This document shows, piece by piece, positions 3,678-13,109 of a stretch of 64,000 nucleotides of DNA (its first letter is position 1; each line of letters begins with the position of its first letter). The position numbers and the translations under genes are program-made. The stretch is from Escherichia coli (GTDB lineage: Bacteria > Pseudomonadota > Gammaproteobacteria > Enterobacterales > Enterobacteriaceae). The stretch is taken from the NCBI RefSeq assembly GCF_013122565.1, contig NZ_CP053258.1; one strand, 5' to 3'. A model generated the notes under the pieces. The model searched no databases. It had not been told where the DNA came from and saw nothing but the letters and a program-made list of their open reading frames with translations.

Positions 3678-5939
3678 TCAATTCTCTTGCCCCAGAACCT
3701 GCGCCAGCTGCGCGCGGGTAAAAGGTTTGCGCAACAGCGCTACGTCTGGCAGCGCGGGGTTATGGCTGGGGCGTAAATCCTGGCCGCTGATGAGTAGCAG
3801 CGTCAGATGCGGGTAAAGTTCGCGGGCCGCATTGACCACTTCTGCGCCGCTCATGCCGCCTGGGAGCATTAAATCGCTGATAAAAATATCGATTTCCGCT
3901 GATGCCGCCAGCAGGTCCAGCGCCTGTTCGCCGCTGCTCGCTTCCAGCGTCAAATAGCCCAGCAGGTGTAACTGCTCGCAGATGGTCTGGCGCACCGCGG
4001 CTTCATCTTCCAGCACGAGCACCAGTTTATCGCCGCTGACGGCTGTCTGTTCTACCGCCGCTGGCGATAGGTTTTTCGCCGCCGTCAGCGCGCGGGGAAG
4101 CTGTAATCTGACCGTTGTCCCCTGCCCCGGCGCGCTTTCAATTTCTACACGCCCACCGGACTGGCGCACAAAACCATAGACCATCGACAAGCCCAGCCCG
4201 CTGCCACTCCCCGTCTGTTTGGTGGTAAAGAACGGCTCAAAGACCTGGCTTTTCACCGCCTGCGACATACCGCTGCCATGATCGATGACCTCCAGCGCCA
4301 CCATGTCCTGACGCTGCCCACTGCTGCGGGTAACGCGCTGATTCCAGGTACGAATTTTGATAATTCCCGTCAGCCCTTCCATCGCATCGCGGGCGTTCAT
4401 CACCAGATTGATGATGGCATTTTCCAGCTGGCTGACATCAATCCACGCGGGCCATGCCGGAGACTGCGCTTCAATCTCAATCGTCAGCGTCGCCGGTAAG
4501 GAGTGGCGCATTAATTCGCTTAACTCTTCCAGCAGTGTTTTTAGCTCAACGGCTTGCGGATGTAAGGACTGCTTGCGGGAAAACGCCAGTAGTCGCTGGG
4601 TCAGTAGCGCGCCACGTTCGGCAGCTTGCTGCGCCCGCTGTATTCGCGGCGCGTCGGGTGAGTCCGTGTTCACCAGTTCCAGGCTGCCAATAATTACCGC
4701 CAACAGATTATTAAAATCATGGGCCAGCCCACCCGTCAATTGCCCAACCGCTTTCAGTTTCTGGCTGTGTAATAGCGCCTCTTCCAGCCCCTGCCTCTCG
4801 GTTTGGGCAATCTCCATCTGCGTGGTTTTCTCTTTCAACAGCCTTGACGTTCGTTCGAGTGACGCGGTATTGCGGGCAAAAACGTTAAAGGCGCGCGCCA
4901 GTTCACCCAACTCATCGCGCCGCTGTAACGCCGGAAAAGTGACGTCCGCTTCGCCGTGCGCCAGGCGGCTCATAGCGCGGGAAATCGCCGTCAGGTTAGA
5001 GCCGAGATTGCGATAGATATACCAACCTGCAAATGCGGTGATCACCACCGCTAACAGAGCGAAAATCATGATCACCCTCTCGCCGGAGCGCAAATCCTGG
5101 TAACTTTGCGCCACCCGCTGACCGGAGAGCATCGCCACCTGTTCGGCGTAACGGTTGATGTCGCCATTAAGGATCGCCACCAGCGCTTTGATGTGAAACA
5201 TATACCAGCTGATTGCCAGATCGCTTTGCTCCAGAGCGGCAGAAAGCGGCGCGAGTTTACGCAGTTCATCATTGAAATCATTGAGTAGCGTATTAACCAA
5301 TGGCGTATCGCTGTGGGTCGGCAACGCAGACATTACCCCGACCAGTTGATGAATAATCGCCTGCGGCGCGGGGGTGGCAATAGCGGCAACAATCAGTCGG
5401 TTCATCTCGTTAAGCAAAATATCATCTTGCGCATTAGTGACTTTTTGCAGATGCCGCAGATAACTTAAGTTTTGATACAGCGAACTTAACAGCGCGTTGC
5501 GCTCCAGATGTCGCCTTTGCCCGCGCTCCAACATTCCGCCGACGCTGGTTTGCAGTTCGTTGCTACGCGTGATGATGCGCGCCACCAGCCCGGCCTCCTG
5601 CTGCGCTAACGGCGCGTTCGCCAGTTGTGCAAGCGAGCTTTTTAATGCCCGCTGTGTCTCCTGCAATCGCTCGGCTTCGCCTTTATATTCCAGCGCTCCC
5701 ACCACTTGTGACAATCGCACCGCCGCCGTCGCCACATTTGCCGTGTCGCGCGCCAGATTCAGGCTGCCGGTCATATCATCCACCGTTTGCTGCTGTACCA
5801 GCTCCTGCATCTGGCTGGCATGACGAAAGCCCATTACCGCCACGCCGCTGACCATCAGCGTCACCGCTACCACCAGCAAATTCAAAAGCAGCAATCGCCC
5901 GCGCGCGCTGGCAAAAAAGTGACGTCCGGGGTGCGCCAT
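3678..5939 (-). CDS. Hybrid sensor histidine kinase (periplasmic sensor domain, HisKA, HATPase, C-terminal receiver; no Hpt)
   Basis: ATG at 5937-5939 (MAHPGRHFF...); two TM segments flank a roughly 290 aa periplasmic domain; H-box GGLAHDFNNLLAVIIGSLEL; G-boxes; C-terminal REC (LVLVLEDEAAVR...DLMLPGG). Confidence 0.8.
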   Translation of the reverse strand: MAHPGRHFFASARGRLLLLNLLVVAVTLMVSGVAVMGFRHASQMQELVQQQTVDDMTGSLNLARDTANVATAAVRLSQVVGALEYKGEAERLQETQRALKSSLAQLANAPLAQQEAGLVARIITRSNELQTSVGGMLERGQRRHLERNALLSSLYQNLSYLRHLQKVTNAQDDILLNEMNRLIVAAIATPAPQAIIHQLVGVMSALPTHSDTPLVNTLLNDFNDELRKLAPLSAALEQSDLAISWYMFHIKALVAILNGDINRYAEQVAMLSGQRVAQSYQDLRSGERVIMIFALLAVVITAFAGWYIYRNLGSNLTAISRAMSRLAHGEADVTFPALQRRDELGELARAFNVFARNTASLERTSRLLKEKTTQMEIAQTERQGLEEALLHSQKLKAVGQLTGGLAHDFNNLLAVIIGSLELVNTDSPDAPRIQRAQQAAERGALLTQRLLAFSRKQSLHPQAVELKTLLEELSELMRHSLPATLTIEIEAQSPAWPAWIDVSQLENAIINLVMNARDAMEGLTGIIKIRTWNQRVTRSSGQRQDMVALEVIDHGSGMSQAVKSQVFEPFFTTKQTGSGSGLGLSMVYGFVRQSGGRVEIESAPGQGTTVRLQLPRALTAAKNLSPAAVEQTAVSGDKLVLVLEDEAAVRQTICEQLHLLGYLTLEASSGEQALDLLAASAEIDIFISDLMLPGGMSGAEVVNAARELYPHLTLLLISGQDLRPSHNPALPDVALLRKPFTRAQLAQVLGQEN

Positions 5940-6052
5940 ATCACGCTCCGTGAAGAAAAATCGCAATATGACAAATATGAACGGCTTCTGACATTTTGCA
6001 TTTACTTTCCTGTGATGGAGTGCTGATATCGACAACCTCGCAGGAGTCCACC

Positions 6053-7573
6053 ATGAACAGCACGCCGGTTCTGGAGATGCGCAATATTGCCAAAGCTTTT
6101 GGCAAATTTTATGCGCTCAAAGGGGTGGATTTGACGGTCTACCCAGGAGAGATCCACGCCCTGATGGGGGAAAACGGCGCCGGAAAAAGCACGCTGATGA
6201 AGGTGCTGGCGGGGGCGTATACCGCCACCAGCGGCGAGATCCTGATAGACGGCAAGCCCTTTCACATTCGCACGCCGAAAGATGCCTTAAGCGCCGGTAT
6301 TACCCTGATTTATCAGGAGATGCAGCTGGCACCCAATTTGACGGTGGCAGAAAATATTTTTCTCGGCAGCGAGCTTTCCCACGGCGGGCTGGTGCAGCGT
6401 AAAGAGATGCTGGTGCAGGCGCAAAAAGTGATCGACCGCCTCGGCGCGCAGTTTAACGCCAGCGATAAGGTCATGACGCTGACCATTGCCGAGCAACAAC
6501 AGGTCGAAATCGCCCGGGCGCTGCATCGCAACAGCCGCATTCTGGTGATGGACGAACCCACCGCAGCCCTCTCCTCGCGTGAAACTCACCGCCTGTTTGA
6601 ATTAATCATGCGGCTGCGCGATGAAGGGATGGCGATTATCTACATTAGCCACCGCATGGCGGAAGTGTATGAGCTTTCCGATCGCGTCAGCGTGCTGCGC
6701 GACGGGCAATACGTTGGCAGCCTGACCCGCGACAACCTCAACGCCGGGGAGCTGGTGCGGATGATGGTCGGCAGGCCACTGAGCGATCTGTTCAATAAAG
6801 AGCGCGATATCCCGCTCGGTAAAGCCCGCCTGAACGTTCACCACCTGACCGACGGCGGCAAAGTCCAGCCGAGTAGCCTGCTGGTGCGTTCCGGCGAAAT
6901 TGTTGGCCTCGCCGGACTGGTGGGTGCCGGACGTTCCGAACTGGCGCAGTTGATCTTCGGCGTGCGCAAAGCGACAGGCGGAATGATTGAAGTCGATGGC
7001 GAACCGGTGGTGATCCACTCCCCGCGCGAAGCCATCGATCTTGGCATTGGCTTTCTCACCGAAAACCGCAAAGAACAAGGCTTATTCCTTGAAATGGCGG
7101 CAGCCGAAAACATCACCATGGCAACCCTGGAGCGCGACGCCCGCTGGGGAATGCTCAATCGCAAAAAAGCGCAAACCATTTCCGATGACGCCATTAAGTT
7201 GCTCAACATTCGCGTGCCTCATGCCCAGGTGCGCGCGGGCGGGCTTTCCGGCGGCAATCAGCAAAAACTGTTGATCTCCCGCTGGGTGGCGATTGGCCCG
7301 CGCATTTTACTGCTCGATGAACCCACCCGCGGCGTGGACGTTGGCGCAAAAAGCGAGATCTACCGGATCATGAACGAGATGGCACGCAAGGGCGTGGCGA
7401 TCCTGATGATCTCCAGCGAACTGCCGGAGATAGTGGGAATGAGCGATCGCGTCTATGTGATGCGTGAAGGCAGCATTGCCGGTGAGTTAAACGGCAAAAA
7501 CATCACCCAGGAAAACATTATGACCTTAGCGACCGGAGTTAACGACGCCCATTCCCAGGCGGTGACCTCATGA
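6053..7573 (+). CDS. Sugar ABC transporter ATP-binding protein (two fused ABC domains, RbsA/AlsA-like)
   Basis: Walker [10 protein letters not shown], signature LSGGNQQK, second ABC domain; ATG at 6053 with RBS CAGGAG. Confidence 0.85.
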
Positions 7574-8544
7574 CGACCTCTGCAAAAACCTCTGCCAAAA
7601 AAATGCTGATGAGCGATCTGATGCAAACGGTCGGCATCTTGCCCATTTTGATTCTGATCGTGGCGGTATTTGGCTTTATCGCGCCAAACTTTTTTAACGA
7701 AAGCAACCTGCTAAATATTACCCGCCAGGCGTCGATCAACATTGTGCTGGCGGCGGGAATGACCTTCATCATTTTGACTGGCGGGATCGATCTTTCTGTA
7801 GGTTCAATTCTCGGCACCACGGCGGTGGCGGCGATGGTCGTCTCCCTTAGCCCTGAGTTCGCCATGCTGTCGATCCCGGCGGCGCTGATGCTCGGTCTGC
7901 TGCTGGGGCTGTTCAACGGCGCGCTGGTGGCCTTTGCCGGATTGCCGCCGTTTATCGTCACGCTTGGCACCTATACGGCGCTGCGCGGGGCGGCGTATCT
8001 GCTGGCGGACGGCACCACGGTTATCAACTCCAACATTAATTTCGAGTGGATAGGCAATAACTATCTCGGGCCGGTCCCGTGGCTGGTGGTGATTGCGCTG
8101 GCGGTGATCGTGGTGTGCTGGTTTATTCTGCGCCGCACCACGCTTGGTGTTCATATCTACGCCGTCGGCGGCAATATGCAGGCGGCGCGTCTTACCGGCA
8201 TTAAGGTCTGGCTGGTGCTGCTGTTTGTTTATGGCATGAGCGGCCTGCTTTCAGGGCTTGGCGGGATTATGAGCGCCTCGCGGCTGTACAGCGCCAACGG
8301 CAACTTAGGCATGGGTTACGAACTGGACGCCATTGCGGCGGTGATCCTCGGCGGCACCAGTTTTGTCGGCGGCATCGGCACCATCACCGGCACGCTGGTC
8401 GGGGCGCTAATTATCGCCACGCTCAACAATGGCATGACCTTAATGGGCGTCTCTTACTTCTGGCAACTGGTGATCAAAGGGGCGGTGATCATCATTGCGG
8501 TGCTGATCGACAAATACCGTACCCGACACCATCAAAGTGCATAA
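7570..8544 (+). CDS. Sugar ABC transporter permease (RbsC-like)
   Basis: Polytopic membrane protein; ATGA start overlap with the upstream ATPase gene. Confidence 0.8.
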
Positions 8545-8562
8545 ACACATGAGGAATACAGC

Positions 8563-9504
8563 ATGAGATTGAAGCCCTTAGTGACCGCGCTCTGTGCAGG
8601 CGCGCTGCTGGCCGCAGCACCGTTCGCCCAAGCGAAAGAACTGAAATCGATAGGCGTAACGGTGGGCGATCTGGCGAACCCGTTCTTCGTGCAGATCACC
8701 AAAGGCGCGGAGCTGGAAGCACGCAAACTGGCAGGCGATAACGTCAAAGTGACGCTGGTTTCCAGCGGCTACGATCTGGGCCAGCAGGTGTCGCAGATAG
8801 ACAACTTTATCGCCGCTAACGTCGATATGATTATCCTCAACGCTGCCGATTCAAAAGGGATCGGCCCGGCGGTGAAACGGGCGAAAGATGCCGGGATCGT
8901 GGTCGTCGCGGTTGACGTGGCGGCAGAAGGTGCCGATGCCACTATCACTTCCGATAACACCCAGGCAGGCGAAATGGCCTGTAAATACATCACCGATCGC
9001 CTGAAAGGCAAAGGCAATGTGGTGATCATCAACGGCCCGCCGGTGTCCGCCGTGCAAAACCGCGTTGAAGGATGCCAGACTGAATTTAAACGCCATCCTG
9101 ACATCAAGGTACTCTCTGACAACCAGAACGCGAAAGGCAGTCGTGAAGGCGGGCTGGAGGTAATGACCGGACTGCTGGCGGCAAATCCGAAGATCGACGG
9201 TGTATTTGCGATTAACGATCCGACAGCGATCGGTGCCGATCTGGCAGCAAAACAGGCGCAACGTAACGAGTTCTTTATTGTCGGCGTAGACGGAAGCCCG
9301 GACGCCGAAGAGGCGCTAAAACGTGAGAACTCGTTGTTTGTCGCCACTCCAGCACAAGATCCCCAGGTGATGGCAGCAAAAGCGGTTGAGATCGGTTATG
9401 ACATTTTGCAGGGCAAACCCGCGCCGAAAGAGCCGGTGCTGATCCCGGTGACGATGATCGATAAAAACAACGTCGGCAATTACAAAGGCTGGACGGTGAA
9501 ATAA
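8563..9504 (+). CDS. Periplasmic sugar-binding protein (RbsB/LacI-type periplasmic binding fold)
   Basis: Signal peptide MRLKPLVTALCAGALLAAAPFAQA; PBP type I features. Confidence 0.8.
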   Translation: MRLKPLVTALCAGALLAAAPFAQAKELKSIGVTVGDLANPFFVQITKGAELEARKLAGDNVKVTLVSSGYDLGQQVSQIDNFIAANVDMIILNAADSKGIGPAVKRAKDAGIVVVAVDVAAEGADATITSDNTQAGEMACKYITDRLKGKGNVVIINGPPVSAVQNRVEGCQTEFKRHPDIKVLSDNQNAKGSREGGLEVMTGLLAANPKIDGVFAINDPTAIGADLAAKQAQRNEFFIVGVDGSPDAEEALKRENSLFVATPAQDPQVMAAKAVEIGYDILQGKPAPKEPVLIPVTMIDKNNVGNYKGWTVK

Positions 9505-11117: not shown

Positions 11118-12115
11118 TGGAACGTAGAGGGATTATCGCCGCAGGCAATATGTTGGTTGACCACGTCCATCAGATTATCCAGTGGCCAGAGCGCGGCTGG
11201 CTGGCGGAGATTACCCACAGCGAACGCTCCACCGGCGGCGCGCCGCTTAATGTCCTGCTGACACTGGCGAAAATGCGCACCGGGTTGCCGTTACAGGCGG
11301 TTGGGCTAATCGGTCAGGACAGCGACGGCGATTACATCATGGCGATGCTTGAGCAATATCACGTCAATCGTCAGCATGTGCAGCGCACTACCTTTGCCCC
11401 GACGTCGATGTCACAGGTGATGACCGACCCAAGCGGGCAGCGGACGTTTTTCCATTCGCCGGGTGCAAACAGACTTTTGGATCTTCCGGCGTTCGATCAG
11501 CTCGATAACACCATGAAGATTTTCCATCTCGGCTATTTACTGTTGCTCGACAGCCTGGATATGCCGGACGATGTTTACGGCACCCGTAGCGCACGACTGC
11601 TGGCGCAAATGCGTGATACTGGCTTTGAAACCTCACTCGACCTGGTCTCCCGCAAGGGCGATCCGCGTTATCAGCCGCTGGTGCTGCCCGCGTTGCGCCA
11701 TCTGGATTATCTGGTAATTAACGAACTGGAGGCCGGGGAGTTTAGTGGGCTGGAAATTCGGTTACCCAACGGCGAACCGCATATCGCGCATATTGCTGCC
11801 GCCGCGCGTGAACTGTTAGATGCGGGCGTGCGCCAGCGTGTGGTGATCCACTGCCCGGAAGGGGCCTGGGGAGAAACCCCGGAACAGGGCGGCGTGTGGA
11901 TCCCTTCGCAAAAGTTAGAACAACGGGAAATTATCGGCAGCGTCGGTGCGGGCGATGCATTTTGTGCCGGATTTTTATATGGCTGCCATGAGTGCTGGGC
12001 GCTAACTGAGAGCATAAAACTGGCACATGCCTGCGCGCGGGCAAGCCTGTTATGCGCTAATGCCATCGACGGGGCAAAAACGCTGGAAGAGTTGCAAACA
12101 GAAATGTCAGATTAA
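11114..12115 (+). CDS. PfkB-family carbohydrate kinase
   Basis: 333 aa; C-terminal GAGDAFCAGF motif; start overlaps the aldolase stop (ATGA). Confidence 0.7.
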   Translation: MMERRGIIAAGNMLVDHVHQIIQWPERGWLAEITHSERSTGGAPLNVLLTLAKMRTGLPLQAVGLIGQDSDGDYIMAMLEQYHVNRQHVQRTTFAPTSMSQVMTDPSGQRTFFHSPGANRLLDLPAFDQLDNTMKIFHLGYLLLLDSLDMPDDVYGTRSARLLAQMRDTGFETSLDLVSRKGDPRYQPLVLPALRHLDYLVINELEAGEFSGLEIRLPNGEPHIAHIAAAARELLDAGVRQRVVIHCPEGAWGETPEQGGVWIPSQKLEQREIIGSVGAGDAFCAGFLYGCHECWALTESIKLAHACARASLLCANAIDGAKTLEELQTEMSD

Positions 12116-12819
12116 TGCACGTCGGCAGCGAAGACATACCCCAGGCCGCGCAGAGTTTTAATCAACATCGGCTGATGCGGATTGAGTTCGATTTTGCGTC
12201 GTAAGCGCATGATTAAGACGTCGATGGTGCGATCAAACACTTCCACGCTATCGCTATGAGTGAACGCCAGCAGCTGCTCGCGGCTTAATACCCGACGGGC
12301 ATTTTGTGCCAGGGCCAGTAACAAGCCATATTCGCCCTGAGTCAGCTCGACATGTTGTTGTAGCGGACTATGCAGTTGACAGCGAATGGTATCGAGATAC
12401 CAGCCATTGAATGACAGCCCGGCGTTTTTCTCCTCGTTAACCGCCAGCGCGCCAACCCGTCGCAACACCGCTTTCAGTCGTGCGACCACCACCCGCGGGG
12501 TGAACGGTTTGCAGATGTAATCATCCGCGCCCATTTCCAGCCCGACCACCACATCAGACTCACTGCCCATGCCGGTCAACATCACCACCGGCAATGTCGG
12601 ACGCAGTTTCTGGATTTGCTGCAATATCCTCAGGCCGTTGGTATCGGGTAGCATCATATCCAGCACCACCAGCGCAATGTCAGGATCGCCCTCAATACGC
12701 AATATGGCCTCCTGTCCGGTATGGCAGACTGAAACCGTAAAGACATGTTCACTTAACACGTCCTGCAGCAGTGCGCAGATAGCCGTGTCATCATCCACCA
12801 CCAGCACGACGGGTTTCAT
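12112..12819 (-). CDS. OmpR-family response regulator (REC plus winged-helix)
   Basis: MKPVVLVVDDD... receiver domain, C-terminal LRGLGYVF winged helix; convergent 4-bp overlap with the kinase gene. Confidence 0.8.
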   Translation of the reverse strand: MKPVVLVVDDDTAICALLQDVLSEHVFTVSVCHTGQEAILRIEGDPDIALVVLDMMLPDTNGLRILQQIQKLRPTLPVVMLTGMGSESDVVVGLEMGADDYICKPFTPRVVVARLKAVLRRVGALAVNEEKNAGLSFNGWYLDTIRCQLHSPLQQHVELTQGEYGLLLALAQNARRVLSREQLLAFTHSDSVEVFDRTIDVLIMRLRRKIELNPHQPMLIKTLRGLGYVFAADVH

Positions 12820-13109
12820 GGTTACACTCCGCATCATTCATCTGATTAATCATTGTGCGTACTTCTTGTCGAAGTGAAAGCTGAAAGTAATATAAATAAT
12901 AAAAATATAAGTCAGGTCACATTATTGATGATAGTAATAAATATGCCGTACTTTTCCCTCTTCAGCACAAATGCCTAATAAAATGGCGCGTTCCGCTCAC
13001 ACTTCCGCTTATTAAAGTCGCAAATTCCCAATTATGATAACCCCAGCTTTAAATGACGTATTTTGCATGGATTACATATTTACGACATAAATGATAAATG
13101 GAGATTTAT

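Follow-up and report, generated by a model that had tools for sequence, protein, structure and literature searches.

In the Escherichia coli DNA analysed here, a stretch of 64,000 nucleotides which we call the window, the gene for a hybrid histidine kinase and the first gene of a sugar transporter operon are transcribed away from each other across a short gap, and the question that this locus raises is what control element lies in the gap, which regulator acts on it and whether it serves one of the two genes or both. The first-pass annotation had described a 113-bp gap at 5940-6052 between the divergent kinase and the transporter operon; these coordinates hold, and the RefSeq annotation of other E. 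coli gives the same two divergent genes with the same 113-bp gap. The locus is flanked by yjdP on one side and by yjcS on the other. Besides the hybrid histidine kinase it contains a three-gene sugar ABC transporter, a D-lyxose/D-mannose isomerase, a ketose-bisphosphate aldolase, a PfkB-family kinase and a convergent OmpR-family response regulator, and it is the genomic island OI-167 of E. coli O157:H7. Its two-component system has been published under two names, as RbfS/RbfR (Z5692/Z5684), a riboflavin sensor which activates ler (Liu et al. 2022, PNAS; PMC9860305), and as LmvK/LmvR, with the operon named lmuKAIZYX (Yang et al. 2023, mBio; PMC10128022). The lmuXYZIAK operon serves the uptake and catabolism of mannose and lyxose (PMC10128022). 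The genes and translation signals on which the argument rests are as follows.

3678-5939, minus strand: lmvK/rbfS, hybrid histidine kinase with HAMP, HisKA, HATPase and REC domains
5940-6052, no strand: divergent control region of 113 bp, from lmvK/rbfS to lmuX (open reading frames; identity to EDL933)
5946-5949, minus strand: Shine-Dalgarno GGAG of lmvK, 6 nt ahead of the lmvK ATG
6042-6046, plus strand: Shine-Dalgarno AGGAG of lmuX (column conservation 0.94)
6053-7573, plus strand: lmuX, sugar ABC transporter ATPase, gene 1 of lmuXYZIAK (open reading frame, annotation)
12112-12819, minus strand: lmvR/rbfR, OmpR/PhoB-family response regulator which binds the site (domains; PMC10128022; PMC9860305)

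The ATG of lmvK is the complement of 5939-5937, and that of lmuX begins at 6053. In LmvR, as encoded by 12115-12819 on the minus strand, the Pfam domains Response_reg (1.3e-25) and Trans_reg_C (1.8e-22) were found, which means that a cognate winged-helix regulator is encoded in the locus itself.

On alignment, the spacer proved to be identical to that of strain EDL933 at 113 of 113 positions, with the flanks also identical, and it is likewise 100% identical in O157:H7 DEC4E and in two non-O157 strains, VE-T9 and C9. The EDL933 promoter PlmuX agrees with the window in its spacer, its flanking genes and its ATATGA-N3-ATATGA repeat, and is thus the same element; since the spacer is identical at all 113 positions, the results published for EDL933 transfer directly to the window. 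Taken as a whole, with the promoter that we infer below, the region is very probably the lmvK-lmuX divergent promoter region of OI-167, with LmvR as its regulator. The control element is therefore real but already known, having been published on an identical sequence. The suggestion that the gap is the binding region of an OmpR-family regulator is borne out by EMSA, footprinting and ChIP-seq of LmvR on the identical EDL933 sequence (PMC10128022), and the footprinting, EMSA and 5' RACE which had been proposed as checks were all done in EDL933 by Yang et al. 2023, who found that LmvR binds (PMC10128022). As a sugar-sensing element it ties the detection of gut sugars to a catabolic operon, a connection which is relevant to pathogen biology and is already published; in EHEC, LmvR/RbfR has been reported to connect to type III secretion genes as well.

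The published binding data are specific as to position. In EDL933, phosphorylated LmvR binds a 22-bp site and activates lmuXYZIAK with mannose or lyxose; LmvR protects the lmuX promoter from DNase I at -62 to -41, a region which contains ATATGA-N3-ATATGA; it shifts a 240-bp probe in EMSA, and deletion of the 22 nt abolishes the shift (PMC10128022). Both LmvR and LmvK are required for mannose induction, which is lost in the lmvR and lmvK deletion mutants (PMC10128022). When we placed the EMSA primers on the window they fell at 5822-5839 and 6044-6061, which gives a product of exactly 240 bp, 5822-6061. The ChIP-seq summits of LmvR in EDL933 lie at 5215274/5215275, with a modest enrichment of 2.4- to 3.1-fold (PMC10128022); mapped by way of the alignment of EDL933 with the window and of the lmvK start, annotated at 5215319, they correspond to window positions 5984 and 5983 (5982 if the summit is 0-based). 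On overproduction of LmvR, RNA-seq recorded a 695-fold rise of lmuX and a 408-fold rise of lmuY (PMC10128022 Table S3). The published fold-change falls within this one operon, from 408-fold at lmuY to 24-fold at lmuZ and the later genes, and a terminator search at the lmuY-lmuZ junction (8545-8562; region 8400-8700) found no terminator-like hairpin.

The first-pass annotation had held that no direct-repeat box could be called with confidence in the gap. The sequence contradicts this: two copies of AATATGA, spaced 9 bp apart, stand at 5965-5971 and 5974-5980. The direct-repeat search that had been recommended was run and returned a single repeat family in 5900-6100, which is AATATGA, lying 30 to 45 bp upstream of CTGTGATGGAGTGCTGATATCGACA, with its half-sites direct and not inverted. 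Furthermore, ATATGA-N3-ATATGA at 5966-5980 is the sole exact match in the 64-kb window. By our own estimate, a 7-mer repeated once in 113 bp has a chance of about 0.006 for one fixed spacing, which is only modestly unlikely, and it is the conservation together with the published binding data that places the repeat beyond chance. The period of the half-sites depends on how they are read: the perfect heptamers stand 9 bp apart, and the minus-strand GT of (C)GTTCA and (T)GTCA (5982 and 5972) stand 10 bp apart. A repeat period of 9 bp is unusual for OmpR/PhoB-family regulators.

5965-5971, plus strand: LmvR half-site 1, AATATGA; direct repeat, part of the published footprint; minus strand TCATATT within TTGTCATATTG
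5974-5980, plus strand: LmvR half-site 2, AATATGA; direct repeat; minus strand 5984-5975 reads CCGTTCATAT
5959-5987, plus strand: envelope of the 22-nt DNase I-protected region (-62 to -41), derived from PMC10128022; the exact ends depend on the start site within 6021-6028, and the 22-nt region must hold 5966-5980

The lmuX start site was mapped by 5' RACE in EDL933 (PMC10128022). Because a 22-nt region at -62 to -41 must include 5966-5980, the start of lmuX falls at 6021-6028 on the window. From this footprint geometry together with conservation, we consider it most likely that PlmuX consists of CTGACA, a 17-bp spacer and TGTGAT, as set out here.

5988-5993, plus strand: probable -35 hexamer CTGACA of PlmuX; TGACAT at 5989-5994 invariant, outside the footprint, 17 bp from TGTGAT
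5994-6005, plus strand: TTTTGCATTTAC, conserved block in the putative promoter spacer (conservation 0.93; TTTA at 6001-6004 invariant)
6011-6016, plus strand: probable -10 region TGTGAT of PlmuX, which includes TGTGA (footprint geometry; conservation 0.90; G6014 and T6016 invariant)
6021-6028, plus strand: interval holding the published 5' RACE start of lmuX, by arithmetic from -62 to -41, which must include 5966-5980

The TGTGA to which the first-pass annotation had drawn attention as a half-site is indeed present, at 6011-6015 within CTGTGATGGAGTGCTGATATCGACA (6010-6034), but it does not stand as a regulator box, as the footprint places it over the -10 and start-site region. With the start at 6021-6028, TGTGA would be part of the -10 region and not a half-site for a regulator or for CRP. 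TGTGAT is non-canonical owing to the G at its second position, where sigma-70 -10 hexamers nearly always carry A. A possible alternative for the -10 is that TGT acts as an extended -10 motif ahead of GATGGA. A sigma-70 consensus scan of 5800-6200 on both strands returned no promoter, and a weak promoter consensus is normal for activator-dependent promoters. PlmuX would be such a weak, activator-dependent promoter, with LmvR sitting directly upstream of its -35 element.

Other readings of the same letters were tried and set aside. The published footprint geometry ruled out both an ATGACA-N17-GACATT promoter (start near 6002) and a TTTACT-N17-TGATAT promoter (start near 6036). The candidate third half-site ATGTCAGAAGC (5994 to 5984) is not covered by the published footprint, and the -35 hexamer accounts for it better; CTGACATTTTGCA was rejected as a sigma-54 promoter on account of its wrong spacing and the absence of GG. 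A terminator scan of 5800-6200 gave one terminator-like hairpin, inside lmuX and at chance level, and an Rfam scan of 5700-6300 gave no match. The sequence GATATCG directly after the lmuX start site is moderately conserved. An inverted repeat, GGAGTGCTG / CAGCACGCC at 6017-6025 and 6058-6066, is 89% complementary and encloses both the Shine-Dalgarno sequence and the start codon of lmuX; it probably forms no RNA hairpin, because most of its left arm precedes the inferred start.

To place the element in its family, the kinase sensor domain was searched against 1.84 billion representative proteins, which yielded a narrow family of 104 hits, and a one-genome-per-species scan gave 80 loci. The genera include Escherichia, Citrobacter, Enterobacter, Leclercia, Kosakonia, Raoultella, Buttiauxella, Cedecea, Atlantibacter, Phytobacter and Franconibacter, among others, and the layout is near-universal in these loci, with the kinase and ABC genes divergent and the gene for the regulator at the distal end of the operon. 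The alignment took in 79 sequences, namely the window, 77 loci and the metagenomic relative L004, each represented by the 130 nt that precede the ABC start codon; nearly all of them come from different Enterobacteriaceae species. Across these 79 sequences mean column conservation was 0.95 in the LmvR repeat (5965-5982), 0.985 in the -35 element CTGACA, 0.93 in the first 12 nt of the spacer (TTTTGCATTTAC), 0.90 in TGTGAT and 0.94 in the Shine-Dalgarno sequence; it was 0.70 at the third codon positions of lmuX and 0.61 in the kinase-proximal part of the spacer. TGACAA (5969-5974), TGAA (5978-5981), TGACAT (5989-5994) and TTTA (6001-6004) are invariant. At position 5966, 38 sequences carry A and 40 carry C, and for this reason the perfect hexamer repeat is found in only 32 of the 80 spacers. 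Judged from the alignment, what the family as a whole retains is (A/C)TATGACAAATATGAAC and, at -35, an invariant TGACA, and not a perfect hexamer repeat. In a strict form the site is present in 73 of the 80 orthologous spacers and occurs nowhere else in the 1.57 Mb of those loci.

The distances of the site to the two flanking genes behave differently. In 73 of 80 spacers the site stands 84-92 nt from the ABC start codon. Its distance from the start codon of the kinase gene is 25 nt in Escherichia, Citrobacter and Pseudescherichia and exceeds 300 nt at the other extreme of the spacers read; it is longer still in five further spacers of up to 3.5 kb. In Enterobacter, Leclercia, Phytobacter, Cedecea and Buttiauxella (L060, L087, L085, L049, L024 and others), the stretch from the LmvR site to the kinase gene carries inserted GC-rich palindromic units of the form CCCTCTCCC..GGGAGAGGG..GGGTGAGGG, from one to about five in tandem; in the spacers read, no such unit separates the LmvR site from the ABC start codon. 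Since the distance to the ABC gene is fixed, that to the kinase gene is variable and insertions occur on the kinase side only, we assign the LmvR site to the ABC promoter, to which, by this spacing, it belongs structurally. In most genera (most of L020-L088) a conserved block ATGAATAGTTAAC-N4-5-(G)ATCACA(T/G)T directly follows the LmvR site in the direction of the kinase gene. Escherichia, Citrobacter and Pseudescherichia, which have spacers of 113-114 bp, lack it, and it is absent from 5940-5964 of the window. This block may hold the ancestral kinase promoter.

There are also indications that the site acts on the kinase gene. On overproduction of LmvR, lmvK falls to 0.26-fold of the vector control (adjusted p 2.7e-16; PMC10128022 Table S3), being one of only two genes that go down, a result on which the authors do not comment, and neither mannose nor lyxose induces lmvK (PMC10128022). 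In the window only 25 nt remain from the end of the LmvR site to the lmvK start codon. With so little room, any lmvK promoter must either share bases with the site or be located upstream of it, within PlmuX. The 4-fold drop of the lmvK transcript in the published data, which was measured by RNA-seq under artificial overproduction of LmvR, is thus explicable by the geometry of the site. We give close to even chances to the proposal that LmvR bound at the site, or RNA polymerase at PlmuX, lowers lmvK transcription. The site would then serve as an operator or roadblock on lmvK when LmvR is bound; alternatively, a fully active PlmuX would take priority for RNA polymerase over an overlapping lmvK promoter. 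The outcome would be a negative feedback loop, as with TorR on torR. That the single LmvR site is a two-way switch, turning lmuX on and the divergent lmvK down, is put forward tentatively, its chances being somewhat short of even. Evidence against repression of lmvK comes from riboflavin, which raises z5692 3.0-fold and z5684 9.1-fold (PMC9860305). Such two-way coupling may be specific to the lineage of Escherichia, Citrobacter and Pseudescherichia, with its 113-114 bp spacers that are without ATGAATAGTTAAC...ATCACA.

These observations have to be weighed against three other explanations of the gap, one of which concerns TGTGA and two the repeats. Were TGTGA at 6011-6015 half of a CRP-cAMP site, catabolite repression would be the main control of the operon. 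Such a left half matches CRP at 5 of 5 positions, TGTGATG(A/G)A(C/G)TGC is fairly conserved among the spacers, and the lmu operon is on with mannose or lyxose and off with glucose, which fits catabolite control or, equally, the absence of inducer. The right half, however, reads GCTGA against TCACA (2 of 5), so that TGTGATGGAGTGCTGA carries 3 mismatches in 10, all in the right half, and in the spacers where it is listed this half reads GCTGA or GCAGA and never TCACA. Other 16-mers in the same spacer reach an equal CRP score by chance, and the conservation of TGTGA is equally explained by the -10 and start-site region. The centre would lie at about 6018.5, 2 to 10 bp upstream of the start interval 6021-6028, which is a repressing and not an activating position; activating CRP positions are about -41.5, -61.5 or -72.5. 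We therefore regard the CRP reading as very unlikely. Still less probable is that the repeats are tor boxes at which TorR, the TMAO response regulator, binds or cross-regulates the region, even though CCGTTCATAT (minus strand, 5984-5975) matches the K-12 tor box CTGTTCATAT at 9 of 10 positions, the bases after this tor-like unit resemble those after torC box 4 (CCGTTCATATTTGTCAT vs CTGTTCATATTTGCTCAT), the recognition helices are similar (LmvR RTIDVLIMRLRRKI vs TorR RTVDVLIRRLRHKL) and the divergent gene adjoins the boxes in a tor-like layout. The torR-torCAD region of K-12 is likewise a compact divergent region in which an OmpR-family regulator occupies tandem decamer-like repeats adjoining a divergent regulatory gene. 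Moreover, TorR at tor boxes 1-2 represses torR, which parallels the drop of lmvK. But the K-12 torR-torC spacer has four tor boxes, in the order CTGTTCATAT twice, CCGTTCATCC and CTGTTCATAT, and its divergent gene encodes the regulator, whereas here there are two units and the divergent gene encodes the kinase. Only one decamer is good, the adjacent unit TTGTCATATT fitting a tor box only with a 1-base gap; about 6 decamers with at most one mismatch are expected per window by chance; and the boxes point away from the activated operon, opposite to torC. LmvR is 36% identical to K-12 TorR and scores 162.8 against a cut-off of 275 in the NCBIfam TorR model. It passes none of the NCBIfam equivalog cut-offs (OmpR 192 vs 331, VirG 183 vs 344, TorR 163 vs 275), with its scores for the OmpR, VirG and PhoB models all above that for TorR. 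LmvR is thus not a TorR orthologue, and it is LmvR itself that footprints the site (PMC10128022).

The likeness to pho boxes raises the reverse expectation for the kinase gene, namely that the repeats form a PhoB-type activating box for lmvK and bring about positive autoregulation. The core of a pho-box half-site is TGTCATA, and the pho box at pstS reads CTGTCATA(A/T)A(A/T)CTGTCA(C/T). The TGTCATA core with its AT-rich tail is also found on the minus strand here (TTGTCATATTG), and the regulators are of the same family. On the kinase strand the repeats read (C)GTTCATATT-TGTCATATT, an orientation relative to lmvK that fits pho boxes; the rise of the kinase and regulator transcripts z5692 (3.0-fold) and z5684 (9.1-fold) with riboflavin (PMC9860305) agrees with positive autoregulation; and the ATGAATAGTTAAC...ATCACA block, kinase-side in most other genera, could carry a -10 element. 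In the window, however, the 25 nt from the site to the lmvK start contain no -10-like hexamer at the required distance, lmvK is not induced by mannose or lyxose and goes 4-fold down on LmvR overproduction (PMC10128022), and the distance of the LmvR site is constant to the ABC gene and not to the kinase gene. An activating PhoB-type box for lmvK is hence highly improbable. As to lmuX, pho boxes are 18 to 22 bp long, take the place of the -35 and read CTGTCAT with transcription; the LmvR site reads against lmuX and stands ahead of a -35-like hexamer, at -62 to -41. In the PhoP regulon of Salmonella, some activated promoters carry reverse-orientation boxes upstream of the -35. PhoP promoters thus offer a likeness in arrangement, a reverse OmpR-family dimer site which lies upstream of the -35 and activates, although half-site, regulator and signal differ. 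What the minus-strand CCGTTCATAT-TTGTCATATTG has in common with tor and pho boxes is resemblance and not membership.

With the repeats taken as the LmvR site of PlmuX, similar sites were sought elsewhere. Upstream of lmvR no paired half-sites were found in the window, and a pair of any kind occurs there in only 10 of 64 species. Binding of LmvR at the lmvR promoter, and autoregulation, have nevertheless been reported (PMC10128022), and since no strict site exists outside the spacer, the LmvR site at the lmvR promoter must be more degenerate. At 12838-13097 of the window there is a 260-bp AT-rich region common with yjcS, which shows no clear ATATGA-type pair. In genera other than Escherichia (L011, L026, L028, L052, L068, L085), CTGACGAAAAACAGGnnTCGTCAnnnnTGACGTGnCGA...TGTGAC is common upstream of the regulator gene. 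The ler footprint TCTCACATAATTTATATCATT was rejected as a like site, its resemblance to the lmuX site being weak and going little beyond a CAT(A) core.

The distribution of the island bears on how old the module is. The window is not O157, and its kinase is slightly shorter than the O157 one (753 and 756 aa). Identity to the best complete E. coli genomes is 97-98% for the island, and the core genes (acs-nrf) are 99% identical to E. coli. In the closest complete genome, that of E. coli VE-T9 (L091), the kinase gene is annotated as frameshifted; in the window it is intact. We found the island in 410 of 5,426 complete E. coli genomes, including O169:H41 and isolates from pig, pigeon, cow and frog, and orthologous clusters in about 75 further Enterobacteriaceae species. 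Island and control region are thus distributed more widely than the 'EHEC-associated' range given in the literature, and the control module appears to be an old Enterobacteriaceae-wide element and not an invention of EHEC. Two distant metagenomic relatives, L004 (7394-7534) and L005 (5316-5472), encode kinases of 870-872 aa with an extra PAS domain; their sensor domains are 58% and 41% identical, and both retain TTGTCATATTG in the divergent spacer. L005 carries, as far as its contig reaches, an FGGY kinase in place of the isomerase in the operon, and its spacer contains the palindrome CTGTTCATGATGATGAACCG.
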